Positions 1 through 47,324 of a stretch of 64,000 bases of DNA are shown here, in pieces. A model generated the notes under the pieces. It saw nothing but the letters and a program-made list of their open reading frames with translations. It searched no databases and was not told where the DNA came from. This DNA comes from an uncultured Bacilli bacterium. GTDB taxonomy: Bacteria > Bacillota_I > Bacilli_A > RF39 > UBA660. Each line of letters starts with the position of its first letter. The stretch's first letter is position 1. Position numbers and translations under genes: made by a program. The stretch lies in contig CAKOXC010000004.1 of NCBI GenBank assembly GCA_934129945.1, forward strand, positions 2,579 to 66,578. The letters are read 5' to 3'.

Positions 1-62
1 GCTTATATAAATAATGAAAAAAACTCCTAGACATATTATAAAATAAGAAGGGAGTTTTTATT

Positions 63-2608: not shown

Positions 2609-3447
2609 TTGTTATAAAGTCTAAATAAATCAATACTTGGACGATTATTAAATCTAAATTTATAATCTTGCGTACCAATACCGCTATTAACATACATTTT
2701 TATATTACCAACATTATATACCCCTTTAGTATAATTATCAGAGCCTTTTAAATGAATTAAACCACCAACAAAAGGAATATTAATTAATCCTCCAAGAGAG
2801 TGAGAAGTAAATAAAACATTTACTTTATAATCTTTTATTTTATTTACTATAGTAGGTTCATGAGCAATTAAAATCGTAAAATAATCATTCTCATCACCTA
2901 AAATAGTAAAGGCACTATTATAATCTATTTTACTTTTTAAAATAGATGTTGTTCCTACTATTTTAATTGGAACAGTGTTTTTATAATATACTAGTTCATT
3001 AGAATTATCTAAAATAGTAAAATTAGCATATTTAAATATGGTTTCAAAATCAGTTAAATTACTATAATCTTGATCACCTTTAACAGCATATTTATTTACA
3101 GTATTATCAATTTTACTAAGTTCTTCTTTTAAAGAATTAACATCATTTTCTGTTATTTTAATTGAATTATCAAATAAATCTCCAGCAAAGATAATTAAAT
3201 CTGGTTTCAACTGGTTAATTTTATTAACCAGTTGTTTTATATCTTTTAATGAAGTAGTATTGCCATAATGAATATCAGCAAATTCTACTATTTTAAATCC
3301 TTCAAAAGAAGTTGGAATATCGTTATCAACAACTGGAGTTTCAATTACTTTAACTCCAGTCGTTCCAATATATCTTGCATATAAAACAAAACAAACTATT
3401 ACCAATACTATAAAAATTAAAAAACTTATAATTTTCTTCTTTTTCAT
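2605..3447 (-). CDS. Membrane-anchored calcineurin-like metallophosphoesterase
   Basis: N-terminal TM; motifs FADIHYG, FAGDLFD and GDQDY are typical metallophosphatase motifs I-III; HSLGGLINIP near the C-terminus. Confidence 0.7.
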   Translation of the reverse strand: MKKKKIISFLIFIVLVIVCFVLYARYIGTTGVKVIETPVVDNDIPTSFEGFKIVEFADIHYGNTTSLKDIKQLVNKINQLKPDLIIFAGDLFDNSIKITENDVNSLKEELSKIDNTVNKYAVKGDQDYSNLTDFETIFKYANFTILDNSNELVYYKNTVPIKIVGTTSILKSKIDYNSAFTILGDENDYFTILIAHEPTIVNKIKDYKVNVLFTSHSLGGLINIPFVGGLIHLKGSDNYTKGVYNVGNIKMYVNSGIGTQDYKFRFNNRPSIDLFRLYNN

Positions 3448-43599: not shown

Positions 43600-44611
43600 C
43601 ATTTTAGCTATTGAATCATCATGTGATGAAACTTCAATGGCAATTATAAAAAATGGAAGTGAAGTTGTAAGTCTTACAATTTTAACACAAATGGATACAC
43701 ATGCAGAGTTTGGTGGAGTAGTGCCTGAAATTGCTTCACGTATGCATACAGAAAATATTACTATGGTTTTAGATGAAACACTAAAAAAAGCATCTTTATC
43801 TAAAGATGATATAGATGCTATAGCTGTTACTTATGCTCCTGGATTACTTGGAAGTTTACTTGTAGGGTTAGAATGTGCTAAAACAATTGCACTTGTTTGG
43901 AATAAACCATTAATTAAAATTAATCATACAATCGGGCATATTTATGCTAATAATTTAATTAAAAAAATGCAATTTCCTCTTTTAGCTTTAATAGTAAGTG
44001 GTGGACATACCGATATGGTAATTATGAAAGATGATTATGAATTTGAAATTTTAGGTTCTACTTTGGATGATTCTATTGGGGAAGTTTATGATAAAGTTGC
44101 AAGAGTACTTGAATTAAAATATCCTGGTGGCCCTAATGTAGAAAAAATGGCCTTAAATGGAACTTATTCTTATGATTTACCAAAACCAGTAAATGATAGT
44201 ACATATAATTTTAGTTTTAGTGGATTAAAAAGTGCGGTTATTAATTTAGTTCATAATGAAGAACAAAGAAATCATGAAATTAGAAAAGAAGATTTAGCAT
44301 GTAGTTTTCAAACTATTGCTATTGATGAATTAGTTAGAAAAGTAGAGTTGGCTTTAAAAAATACTGGCATTAAAAATATGATTATTGCTGGTGGCGTTTC
44401 TGCTAATAAATATTTAAGAGAGCAAATGAAGATTGTGTGTGAAAAATACAACGTAGATTTAACTGTTCCTGATTTGATTTATTGTACAGATAATGCTGCT
44501 ATGATTGGAGCTGCTGCATATCCTCTTTATTTAAAAAAAGAATTCTGTGGTTTGGATACAAATGCTTCAAGTCAAATATCAATAAAATATTATGATACTT
44601 CAAAAAAATAA
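43586..44611 (+). CDS. tsaD: tRNA N6-adenosine threonylcarbamoyltransferase TsaD
   Basis: ILAIESSCDETSMAI, HMHTEN-like metal site, SGGVSANKYLR: Kae1/TsaD family. Confidence 0.9.
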   Translation: MKDVNILAIESSCDETSMAIIKNGSEVVSLTILTQMDTHAEFGGVVPEIASRMHTENITMVLDETLKKASLSKDDIDAIAVTYAPGLLGSLLVGLECAKTIALVWNKPLIKINHTIGHIYANNLIKKMQFPLLALIVSGGHTDMVIMKDDYEFEILGSTLDDSIGEVYDKVARVLELKYPGGPNVEKMALNGTYSYDLPKPVNDSTYNFSFSGLKSAVINLVHNEEQRNHEIRKEDLACSFQTIAIDELVRKVELALKNTGIKNMIIAGGVSANKYLREQMKIVCEKYNVDLTVPDLIYCTDNAAMIGAAAYPLYLKKEFCGLDTNASSQISIKYYDTSKK

Positions 44612-44709
44612 TGAAAAGTAAAAATGGTGGACAAATATACTTAAATATTCTATAGTAAATAAACATAGTAATTATGTTGTTCAATTTTTTGTATATAATA
44701 TAAAAAAGC

Positions 44710-44745
44710 AGGTGAAGCCAGCCTTAAATGGCAGCTAAAAAAGTA
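44710..44745 (+). ncRNA. Single ToxI/antiQ-like type III antitoxin RNA repeat unit (degenerate array)
   Basis: AGGTGAAGCCAGCCTTAAATGGCAGCTAAAAAAGT resembles, from memory, the about 36-nt ToxI repeat consensus (AGGTGA...CTTTAAGTGCAGCTAGAAA); followed by terminator and toxin gene as in toxIN loci. Confidence 0.4.
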
Positions 44746-44747
44746 GG

Positions 44748-44778
44748 TTAGAGAGCAGACTCTAATCTTTTATTTTTA
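44748..44778 (+). terminator. Rho-independent terminator between antitoxin-RNA repeat and toxin ORF
   Basis: TTAGAG-agcaga-CTCTAA hairpin then T-rich run ATCTTTTATTTTTAT. Confidence 0.5.
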
Positions 44779-44796
44779 TAAAAACAGGGAGGTTAA

Positions 44797-45254
44797 ATGT
44801 ATAAAAAATTAAAAATTGTAAAAGTTAATTCAAAGTATTGCGACTATTTAAGAAAATATGATTGTAGAGTTTCTTTTAATGCTGGTTCTAAATAATTAAG
44901 GCCATTTATTGGGGTACTTTTTAAAAATTGAAAAATACTTTAGACTTAATAAAAATAAAAAATGGTAAATACGGTGTTATAAATTTTAATAATATGATTC
45001 CTGTCTATGAAGAAGTGTATAGTGTATTTGATTTAAATAATAAACCTATTGATAATACAGAAATAAAAAGATTTGAATTATTAAACAATCAGTTACGTTG
45101 GATTAATGAAAATAGAAAAGAAATATTACTTAAATCAAAACTTCTTTATCATTTATATACTACTAATAAACTTCCTGATAACGTAAAAAGTAGATGCTGT
45201 AATTTTCTTATATTAGAAAAAAATTGCTTGAATTATAAAAAAAGCCAAAGATAA
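44797..45254 (+). pseudogene. ToxN/AbiQ-family type III toxin (endoribonuclease), apparently disrupted (two ORF fragments, central segment missing)
   Basis: N-fragment MYKKLKIVKVNSKYCDYLRKYDCRV matches ToxN/AbiQ N-terminus (MKFYTISSKYIEYLKEFDDKV); C-fragment GVINFNNMIPV...CNFLILEKN matches ToxN LINLKFMIPI...CNFSLLEEK; about 40 aa of the middle is absent and the frames differ. Confidence 0.55.
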
Positions 45255-45263
45255 AGGCTTTTT

Positions 45264-47324
45264 TTATAACCAAAACTGTATCATGTTTGATAACTGTTGA
45301 TAAACAGTAGAATTATAATATTTAAGACTATAATTTAAATCTACTGGTATTAAAAAGTAATTGAATAAAGTACTACTTAAAAATAATATAATAAATACTA
45401 AATTTATATAATACTTTTCTTTATCATTAAATTTATCAATATTATTAAATAAAGCAAGTAAGCAAATGGCTGTTGCTAAAAATAATAACCATGAAAAATC
45501 TAACATATATCTTGGTAATATTCCAGCCATTTGAGTATCTAGAATTACCAAAACTACAGCAATTATGTTGCACATAATTGTTAATGTATATACATTAGGG
45601 TTATTTATTAAATTCTTAAATTTCTTTACAAATAATCCTACTATTAGAATTAAGTTACAAGCAATTAATCCACCAAATAATGGCTCAGAAATAGTAACTC
45701 CCATGTACTGAGTATCTACAAAAATTTTATTAATAAACGGGAAAACTAATGATATATCAGGACTTTTAAATAACATATAATAAATTCCTAAGAAAACTCT
45801 ATCTATATTGAAACCTCTTAATGTCATATCATTAGTAGTTAGATTATAATTAGCTCCAAAATCAAAAGGTGATGAAAATCTTATATAGTTATAATACATT
45901 AAAGCAAGTCCTACAAGAGCAAATGGTATTGCAAATACCATTAATTTTTTTAGTAATTCTTTTTCTTTTAAATAATCTTTAAATATTGGAATACAAAATA
46001 AAGAAGTTAAAAGAAGTTGAGGTCTACATCCAGCAACTAGTGCCATTGAAAAAGAACCTAAAAATACTAATTTTAAATTTAATTTACCATAACTTGTTGA
46101 TTTGAGCCATAAATATAATCCTAAAATACTAAAGAATATTGCACTAACTATTGGAACATTATATAGATCAGGTCTTTTTAAAGCATATAGTAAATAAGAA
46201 CCGTTTATCATTAAACTTGTTATTAATAAAAAAGATAATGTAGAAATATTTTTAAAATATTTTTTACATAATTCTTTTAAAAGAAGCAATAATGTAAGTA
46301 GAATAAATACTCCAAAAATAAATATGTAAGTAGAATTTTTTAAGTCATTGTTAGTTATTAAGTAATAAGGAAAGTATGCAATAACTACTGGAACAACACC
46401 AAAATAAACATAATATTTATTATTGTAAAATGCATAATCCCATAAATATTTTTCGTTTTCTTCCAGTAGAATTCTTTCACGGTAATTAGTATCATAAGGA
46501 TTTTTTAAATTTTTTAAAGAATCACTAACTTTATAATCTATATCAACTCTTTTATTTTTAAAAGAATTTGCAAGTTCATTATATTCTAATTGATTAAAGC
46601 CAGTAGGGTTATTAAAATAATTATTAATTTTACTTAAATTATAAAATAGAAATATATTAAAAATAATAAAAGAAGTAATTAAAATATAATTGAATTTTTT
46701 ATTATATTTTTCATTAGTAATTAATTTAAATTTATATAATGAACTTCTAGGTCTTATAAAGTAAATAAAACATAAAGAAATAAATAGTATAAAAAATCTT
46801 AAATAATTAAAAGCGAATGGTTTTACCACATTGGCTGTAAAACCATTTATTTTTATTTCATTTTTAAATTTCAAAAAATCATTATCTTTATATAATTTAA
46901 AACGAATTTTTAATTTATGAGCATTTCCGCTTAAATTTAATTTAACATATTTACTATTTTCAATGTTATTAGTTATTGTCCTTTTAGGAAGACGGTAGTA
47001 AATTTTGTTACCTGTATCTTTGGCGTACAATTTATATTCAACAACATTATCTAAAGATTCTAAGTCTAAATATAAATTGTTAATTTTTTTATAAATATTA
47101 TCTATTACAATATAATTACTTTCATTAGTTATTTTATATGTATTATTACCGGTCTTAACCATACCATTATAACTTGTAACTGATAAATTTAAATTATTTT
47201 TATAAAATAATGATTCATAAAAGCGAAAATTAAATACAAATATTTCTAAGAATAAAGAAATACTTAAAAATAATATTATCTTTTTTATGTAATTTTTTTC
47301 TAATAAACTTTTGATTTTATTCAT
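45264..47324 (-). CDS. Large polytopic membrane protein with N-terminal extracytoplasmic domain; YfhO/GT-C-like candidate
   Basis: 686 aa; N-terminal TM, about 150 aa soluble domain, then at least 10 TM helices; divergently paired with a GT2 gene. Confidence 0.45.
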   Translation of the reverse strand: MNKIKSLLEKNYIKKIILFLSISLFLEIFVFNFRFYESLFYKNNLNLSVTSYNGMVKTGNNTYKITNESNYIVIDNIYKKINNLYLDLESLDNVVEYKLYAKDTGNKIYYRLPKRTITNNIENSKYVKLNLSGNAHKLKIRFKLYKDNDFLKFKNEIKINGFTANVVKPFAFNYLRFFILFISLCFIYFIRPRSSLYKFKLITNEKYNKKFNYILITSFIIFNIFLFYNLSKINNYFNNPTGFNQLEYNELANSFKNKRVDIDYKVSDSLKNLKNPYDTNYRERILLEENEKYLWDYAFYNNKYYVYFGVVPVVIAYFPYYLITNNDLKNSTYIFIFGVFILLTLLLLLKELCKKYFKNISTLSFLLITSLMINGSYLLYALKRPDLYNVPIVSAIFFSILGLYLWLKSTSYGKLNLKLVFLGSFSMALVAGCRPQLLLTSLFCIPIFKDYLKEKELLKKLMVFAIPFALVGLALMYYNYIRFSSPFDFGANYNLTTNDMTLRGFNIDRVFLGIYYMLFKSPDISLVFPFINKIFVDTQYMGVTISEPLFGGLIACNLILIVGLFVKKFKNLINNPNVYTLTIMCNIIAVVLVILDTQMAGILPRYMLDFSWLLFLATAICLLALFNNIDKFNDKEKYYINLVFIILFLSSTLFNYFLIPVDLNYSLKYYNSTVYQQLSNMIQFWL

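Follow-up and report, generated by a model that had tools for sequence, protein, structure and literature searches.

Downstream of tsaD in the chromosome of an uncultured gut Bacilli species with 24% GC, two short open reading frames (ORFs) in different frames follow a structured motif, and it may be asked whether these elements are two genes with a new RNA in front of them or the parts of one system. The stretch analysed (hereafter, the window) comprised 64,000 nt. Both small ORFs and the motif before them proved to belong to a single dead ToxIN/AbiQ module, and to represent neither two genes nor a new RNA. With a probability of about 0.9, judged from sequence comparison, what remains here is a chromosomal type III toxin-antitoxin module of the ToxIN/AbiQ abortive-infection family that has been inactivated.

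Organisation of the locus

The tsaB-rimI-tsaD genes lie on the plus strand and end at position 44611; a 185-nt intergenic region comes next, followed by the two ORFs. The pseudogenised type III toxin-antitoxin (ToxIN/AbiQ) module occupies positions 44628-45254 of the plus strand, at a fixed site beside tsaD, and is flanked on the other side by a gene for a 686-aa membrane protein. In the 5' to 3' direction, it contains a promoter-like site, one 40-nt ToxI-like unit, a terminator hairpin, a ribosome-binding site (RBS) and a broken toxN gene (Table 1). The 686-aa protein gave no match in Pfam or PADLOC. The position of its gene next to the module was conserved within the species, and a family-2 glycosyltransferase gene came after it.

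Table 1. Features of the decayed toxIN locus (positions in the window)
Feature	Position	Strand	Basis and remarks
Promoter-like site TGGACA-17-TATAGT	44628-44656	+	10/12 consensus matches; putative promoter
Leader, from promoter to antitoxin unit; 3' end is the A-run AAAAAAG	44657-44703	+	Sequence reading
Single ToxI-like antitoxin unit AAAAGCAGGTGAAGCCAGCCTTAAATGGCAGCTAAAAAAG	44704-44743	+	Covariance model R1, 59.6 bits, E = 8e-13
Rho-independent terminator AGGTTAGAG-AGCAGA-CTCTAATCT and T-run	44745-44778 (hairpin 44745-44768)	+	9-bp stem
RBS of toxN, GGGAGG	44787-44792	+	Sequence reading; 4 nt before ATG at 44797
toxN pseudogene, part 1: codons 1-32, then premature TAA at 44893-44895	44797-44895	+	Alignment to intact P0001/P0137
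toxN pseudogene, part 2: codons 34-43 (LRPFIGVLFK), original frame kept	44896-44927	+	Three-frame translation, ortholog alignment
toxN pseudogene, part 3: codons 63-170, -1 frame relative to part 1	44928-45254	+	PF13958, PADLOC AbiQ
A/T-flanked hairpin AAAAAAAGCC-N9-GGCTTTTTTT	45232-45262		Sequence reading; weak Rfam matches to terminator-type sRNAs on both strands
Membrane-protein gene, 686 aa, predicted multi-pass	45264-47324	-	Convergent toward toxN

Of 74 homologous loci, 37 had the arrangement T[ATG]GAC[AT]-16..18-TAYNNT before unit 1, 33 of them with a TGn-extended -10 element; the distance of this arrangement to unit 1 was 14-128 nt and mostly 30-90 nt. A second -10 candidate in the window, TGTATATAAT (44690-44699), is the less likely promoter element, because the arrangement conserved across the family agrees better with TGGACA-17-TATAGT. 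The promoter of the intact conspecific alleles described below is TAGACA-17-TGCTATAGT, and the window version is devoid of the TG of the extended -10 element. The leader that was conserved between the promoter and unit 1 in loci L008-L087 contained the palindromes ACATAAGTGATTATGT and TGCA...TGCATATAAT.

One terminator-like site was found where 0.1 was expected. A terminator between antitoxin and toxin, which is characteristic of type III systems, was kept in all homologous loci. The hairpin at the 3' end of the module is probably a bidirectional terminator common to toxN and the convergent 686-aa gene.

Lesions in the toxin gene

The Pfam family PF13958 (ToxN_toxin) matched both ORFs. Profile positions 1-25 aligned with the first (32 aa; E = 2.3e-4, alone below the gathering score) and positions 59-159 of 159 with the second (108 aa; E = 1.9e-21), which was also matched by the PADLOC AbiQ model (E = 2.3e-16). 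Besides ToxN_toxin, no substantive Pfam match was obtained among the toxin fragments; a match to OSK (E = 0.02) was regarded as noise, being sub-threshold at 14.6 bits against a cut-off of 27. The proposal of the sequence-only reading that a ToxN/AbiQ-like toxin is present here as two out-of-frame fragments was thus borne out, and its suggested alignment of the fragments to ToxN/AbiQ succeeded with PF13958, with PADLOC AbiQ and, via an intact ortholog, with the ToxN chains in the PDB.

The lesions were mapped on alignments with intact conspecific loci of the same gene order (tsaB-rimI-tsaD, toxIN, 686-aa gene). The first is a nonsense codon, GAA to TAA, at 44893-44895 (E33*). The second is a deletion of 55 nt, that is, 18 codons plus 1 nt, which takes out codons 44-61 (INDCEYFAPLSSPKIKHK) and shifts the frame; its junction (44923-44927) lies inside an A-run, and the deleted segment is flanked by AAAA microhomology. 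The 108-aa ORF given by mechanical translation, which starts at TTG, corresponds to the third part of the pseudogene. The earlier estimate that about 40 central residues are missing had come from profile coverage and did not hold, as the gene has lost 18 codons and acquired a premature stop.

The catalytic residues of ToxN are Lys33, Thr52, Ser53 and Lys55, and Ala49-Pro50-Leu51 hold them in place (PMC8860590). In the ortholog-structure alignment, the APLSSPK strand of the intact protein aligned with APLTSPK of ToxN, and Ser54, Ser55 and Lys57 corresponded to Thr52, Ser53 and Lys55. This Ser/Ser/Lys motif falls inside the segment deleted from the window allele. The counterpart of ToxN Lys33 is Arg35, which lies downstream of the premature stop codon. 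The toxin has thus been inactivated in two ways, since the Lys33-aligned residue follows the stop and the catalytic segment is deleted. Conspecific strains encode an intact toxin with the catalytic residues (P0137 and others), but the window does not. As active ToxN cannot be produced from it, a toxin-antitoxin cycle would not be possible in the window, and the remnant is predicted from its sequence to have no remaining toxin-antitoxin function. At most, a short leader-unit-terminator RNA would still be transcribed from it.

A single antitoxin unit with a conserved pseudoknot

A covariance model (R1) was built on 118 distinct aligned units, which had been collected from 79 related loci. Over all 64 kb of the window it detected a single unit; the next match scored 19 bits and lay in an A-rich coding stretch. 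A tandem array of two or more copies upstream of the terminator is thus absent from the window. The unit was identical to unit 1 of the three-unit arrays in loci L019 and L021 and in the intact conspecific loci L097-L104.

Covariation across the 118 distinct units supported an H-type pseudoknot of two interleaved helices. The pseudoknot cells were paired in 95.4% of cases, compared with 78.8% in shuffles and 18-46% in slid controls, and 5 of the 7 pairs showed changes on both sides. Stem 1 (columns 7-9 and 19-21) occurred as AGG/CCU, GAG/CUC, GGG/CCC and UGG/CCA, and stem 2 (columns 14-17 and 31-34) as GCCA/UGGC, UCCA/UGGA, GGCA/UGCC, ACCA/UGGU and the CCGG/CCGG type. The window unit makes all 7 pairs, with AGG (44710-12) and CCT (44722-24) in stem 1 and GCCA (44717-20) and TGGC (44729-32) in stem 2.

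Rfam 15 gave no ToxI match at E ≤ 10 in window positions 44400-45400, where only weak matches to terminator-like sRNAs were returned (45201-45304). The same library gave no match on the intact three-unit array of L019 (2600-3100), which served as the positive control. The negative Rfam result is therefore not evidence against the antitoxin unit, and the Rfam 15 library does not cover this ToxI-like antitoxin class. The Rfam check proposed beforehand was thus negative but missed the intact array as well, and the purpose-built model recognised the window unit (59.6 bits). The single ToxI-like unit, put at about 36 nt in that reading, was recovered as one of 40 nt, and the terminator hairpin described before the toxin was found together with its T-run.

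Intact alleles and loss of two units

A database search with the 108-aa fragment returned an intact 170-aa toxin, P0001, to which the fragment was 98% identical. The P0001 cluster contained further intact 170-aa variants (P0137, P0138, P0139, P0142 and P0145). On the contigs encoding P0137, the gene order was the same as in the window: tsaE, tsaB, rimI, tsaD, toxN, the 686-aa gene and the glycosyltransferase gene. The intact conspecific arrays of L097-L100 and L104 consisted of three units of 35, 37 and 37 nt, and that of L101 of two. In the intact array, unit 1 is AAAAAAGCAGGTGAAGCCAGCCTTAAATGGCAGCT, unit 2 is AAAAAAGTGAGTGAAGCCAGCTCTATAAATGGCAGCT (37 nt) and unit 3 is identical to unit 2, after which the terminator hairpin follows. 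Intact copies with a multi-repeat array, for which a search had been advised, therefore exist at the same chromosomal site in other strains, and comparison with them confirmed that the window holds the remnant of a defence system beside the tsa operon.

The intergenic region measures 185 nt in the window versus 259 nt in the intact conspecifics, and the 74 nt lost are exactly units 2-3. The junction lies within 44725-44744, in sequence common to the units. In many species (L008-L087; L097-L104), unit 1 was 35 nt long with an AGG...CCT stem, and units 2-3 were 37 nt long with a GAG...CTC stem. Because this difference between unit 1 and units 2-3 is compensatory, the units are not simply homogenised copies.

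The Logan contigs L001, L102 and L103, which derive from intact strains, all started at GCCAGCTCTATAAATGG..., and the first base by which the last unit differs from an internal one lies exactly 30 nt further on. Logan contigs are assembled with k = 31, at which value a graph branch at identical tandem units would be expected to start contigs at this position.

The divergence of the window from the intact locus L097 was 0.9% in tsaD, 1.5% in toxN, 1.35% downstream and 7% in the 185-nt intergenic region. All 13 intergenic substitutions relative to the intact conspecifics were located in the promoter and leader (44612-44703), upstream of the unit; one of them removed the TG of the extended -10 element.

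Other decayed alleles in the species

The species proved polymorphic for intact and decayed toxIN alleles, and the decayed ones differed in their lesions. In L002, toxN carried a 91-nt C-terminal deletion, and in L003-L007 and L089-L091 the same 91-nt deletion was combined with one of about 99 nt near the N-terminus; all of these alleles had one unit. The lone unit of L002 (5908-5947) contained a pair-breaking G to A change in stem 2, and that of the L003 group (L003 5894-5933) a pair-breaking T to C change in stem 1, both uncompensated.

Over 2.7 kb downstream of the module, the window differed by 0.8% from L001, which has an intact allele, and by 2.3-3.9% from the other decayed haplotypes. 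Since the window is closer to intact L001 than to the other decayed haplotypes, two or more independent rounds of toxin decay and array collapse must have taken place within the species, provided that the locus has not been scrambled by recombination. A single ancestral collapse common to all decayed haplotypes was rejected on the basis of this downstream divergence and of the differing toxin lesions, although recombination could blur the comparison.

Unit number and toxin state in related loci

A scan with one genome per species yielded 80 loci whose ToxN homologs had identities of 55-69%; metagenome-assembled genomes (MAGs) of uncultured gut Bacilli, Erysipelotrichaceae or "Clostridia" accounted for almost all of them. 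Intact toxIN copies were present in about 74 other MAG species. The upstream layout was the same in all 80 loci, with tandem units of 34-40 nt, A-runs between them and then a hairpin terminator. Several loci had peculiarities. In L064 (~2700-3000), the terminator and toxN were separated by some 300 nt of inserted sequence that contained a small ORF, the modules of L025 and L035 lay directly after tRNA genes, and unit 2 of L026 had a 10-nt insertion in the pseudoknot loop.

Units were counted by nhmmer in the 79 evaluable loci, one more locus being cut by a contig end. Three units were present in 69 loci, two in 6, four in 1 and one in 3. Hence, the statement that functional loci carry 2-5.5 repeats had to be corrected for this clade, in which the usual number is 3. 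In all three single-unit loci the toxin was dead (nonsense codons in L035 and L082, a frameshift in L041), whereas among the 76 loci with at least two units this was true of only two, L010 (two units) and L078 (three units), both with nonsense codons. The difference between 3/3 and 2/76 was significant by Fisher's exact test (p = 1.3e-4; 79 loci). An intact toxin with only two units was found in 5 loci, and the combination of one unit with an intact toxin was not found among the 79 genome loci or the conspecific alleles.

Some of these assignments required inspection. L056, a candidate for a single unit with an intact toxin, was rejected because inspection and nhmmer both gave three units; L085 also had three units by nhmmer. 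The stops in L044 and L075 were not accepted as lesions, as they are natural stop codons within the aligned tail.

Relation to known type III systems

The published definition of a type III locus is a promoter, repeats, a terminator and a toxin (PMC5086642), and the order found here matches it. The intact ortholog P0137 matched the solved ToxN structures 4ATO (Bacillus thuringiensis pAW63; E = 2.6e-20), 2XD0 (Pectobacterium atrosepticum pECA1039, as are 2XDB and 2XDD; E = 1.2e-17) and 7D8O (Escherichia coli; E = 5.4e-16), as well as AbiQ (4GLK; E = 5.1e-7) and the PADLOC AbiQ model (E = 4e-35).

The window locus shares with the ToxIN systems of these three species the toxin fold family PF13958 and the operon order of promoter, tandem 34-40-nt repeats, terminator and toxin; A-rich linkers separate the units there and likewise in this clade. 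The H-type pseudoknot with an AGG...CCU stem is also common to both, and the 5' part of the P. atrosepticum ToxI unit, AGGTGATTTGCTACCTTTAAG (primer TRB57, PMC5772629), resembles the start of the window unit. There are also differences. The P. atrosepticum array has 5.5 repeats (PMC5772629) versus three units in the live relatives of this clade. In the window, the toxin is a pseudogene with one unit left, the unit sequence is matched by no Rfam 15 model, and the locus occupies a fixed chromosomal position beside tsaD in uncultured gut Bacilli. The toxin has low identity to the solved ToxN proteins and resembles them only as a member of the same family.

AbiQ/antiQ of Lactococcus lactis pSRQ900 (4GLK), which acts as an abortive-infection defence, has a toxin of the same superfamily and the same repeat-terminator-toxin layout, but AbiQ is farther by sequence from the intact ortholog than ToxN_Bt or ToxN_Pa. 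CptIN and TenpIN (Blower et al. 2012, PMC3401426) are likewise organised as repeats, a terminator and an endoribonuclease toxin, but their toxin families differ from that of the window. Because ToxN_toxin was the only substantive Pfam match, the locus belongs to the ToxIN family rather than to CptIN or TenpIN. It may be concluded that the remnant is an ordinary defence-gene relic, a newly found decayed member of a family that is already known.

Possible course of the decay

From the literature on the ToxIN family (PMC5086642, PMC8860590, PMC5772629), the working form of the module may be pictured as follows. One promoter would give a transcript of the leader and three tandem units of 35-37 nt with A-runs between them. 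Most transcripts would stop at the terminator, and occasional read-through would supply the 170-aa ToxN endoribonuclease. By analogy, ToxN would cut the precursor at the A-rich linkers, where the cleavage site is placed by the same analogy, and the active site of ToxN would then be blocked by binding of each pseudoknotted unit. Phage infection would upset this balance and free the toxin, an RNase that kills the cell.

In the lineage of the window, toxN was killed by the stop at codon 33 and by the 55-nt slippage deletion. The array went from three units to one by inter-repeat recombination, so that the surviving unit has the 5' part of unit 1 fused to the 3' terminus of the last one. Loss of the toxin most likely came first, after which the useless array contracted neutrally to one copy, which would be the end state because repeat recombination cannot shrink an array any further. 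This order is favoured because L078 and L010 have dead toxins with more than one unit, as intermediates of such a course would, because live toxins occur with two units in 5 loci, and because the lone units of the older haplotypes have themselves decayed.

The reverse order, which would be the more interesting one, is considered rather unlikely. Under it, collapse of the array would cut the antitoxin dose, a live toxin would become harmful, and inactivating mutations would be selected, repeatedly, in this and other species. The lack of a one-unit locus with an intact toxin among the 79 genome loci and the conspecific alleles is in keeping with such a course, and copy number seems to be under selection, given that 69 of the 79 loci have retained three units. 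On the other hand, L078 and L010 show that toxin death can precede collapse, and the 5 loci with two units and an intact toxin also speak against this order. An over-expressed single ToxI repeat, reportedly, can neutralise ToxN (Blower et al., 2009). In the 2012 study of that group, single repeats were cloned and tested as antitoxins (PMC3401426). At the same time, several monomers per transcript have been proposed to help set the antitoxin:toxin ratio (PMC5086642), which would agree with collapse as the first step. The stronger generalisation, that in this clade a live ToxN is never kept with fewer than two antitoxin units and that array contraction is a recurrent trigger of toxin loss, is doubtful. 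If true, the array copy number would be a built-in fuse of this defence system.

It is also very improbable that the lone unit, with its promoter and terminator, is maintained as an orphan antitoxin against related ToxN proteins on phages or plasmids, in an anti-addiction or immunity role. The promoter-like site, the unit and the terminator do survive in every decayed haplotype next to a toxN gene with large deletions, and the window unit does not differ from unit 1 of a functional array; the unit, terminator and RBS, which are identical or nearly so to those of the intact allele, would also fit a residual role for the lone RNA. However, the unit is only 40 nt long, and its chance survival is expected at a divergence of 0.8-4%. 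In the older haplotypes (L002 and the L003 group) it bears uncompensated pair-breaking changes. Moreover, the window promoter has no extended -10 TG, the promoter and leader upstream of the unit hold all 13 intergenic substitutions (7% compared with about 1% in the coding flanks), and excision of the unit from its precursor would require the missing ToxN.

Finally, the window allele (32-aa and 108-aa products) recurred with an identical TsaD on at least 21 contigs of metaSPAdes and MEGAHIT style from various samples, including Hadza gut metagenomes, and the 108-aa product was recorded on 51 contigs. That the lesions are sequencing or assembly errors and toxN is really intact can be dismissed almost entirely: although the sequence here is very rich in A/T and contains homopolymer runs, and although repeats can be collapsed by MAG and short-read assemblies, the nonsense codon, the 55-nt deletion and the single unit were identical on these contigs across samples and assemblers, a 55-nt deletion and a G to T substitution are not homopolymer errors, and the same assembler types recovered the intact three-unit allele in other samples.

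Significance

The present findings leave the current understanding of type III system function unchanged. The alignment of the units (A3) and model R1 could seed an Rfam model for this antitoxin class. The comparison set of about 80 loci from MAGs of uncultured gut Bacilli and Clostridia may serve researchers of type III systems, as it offers a series from nature in which the coupling between repeat number and toxin integrity can be studied.
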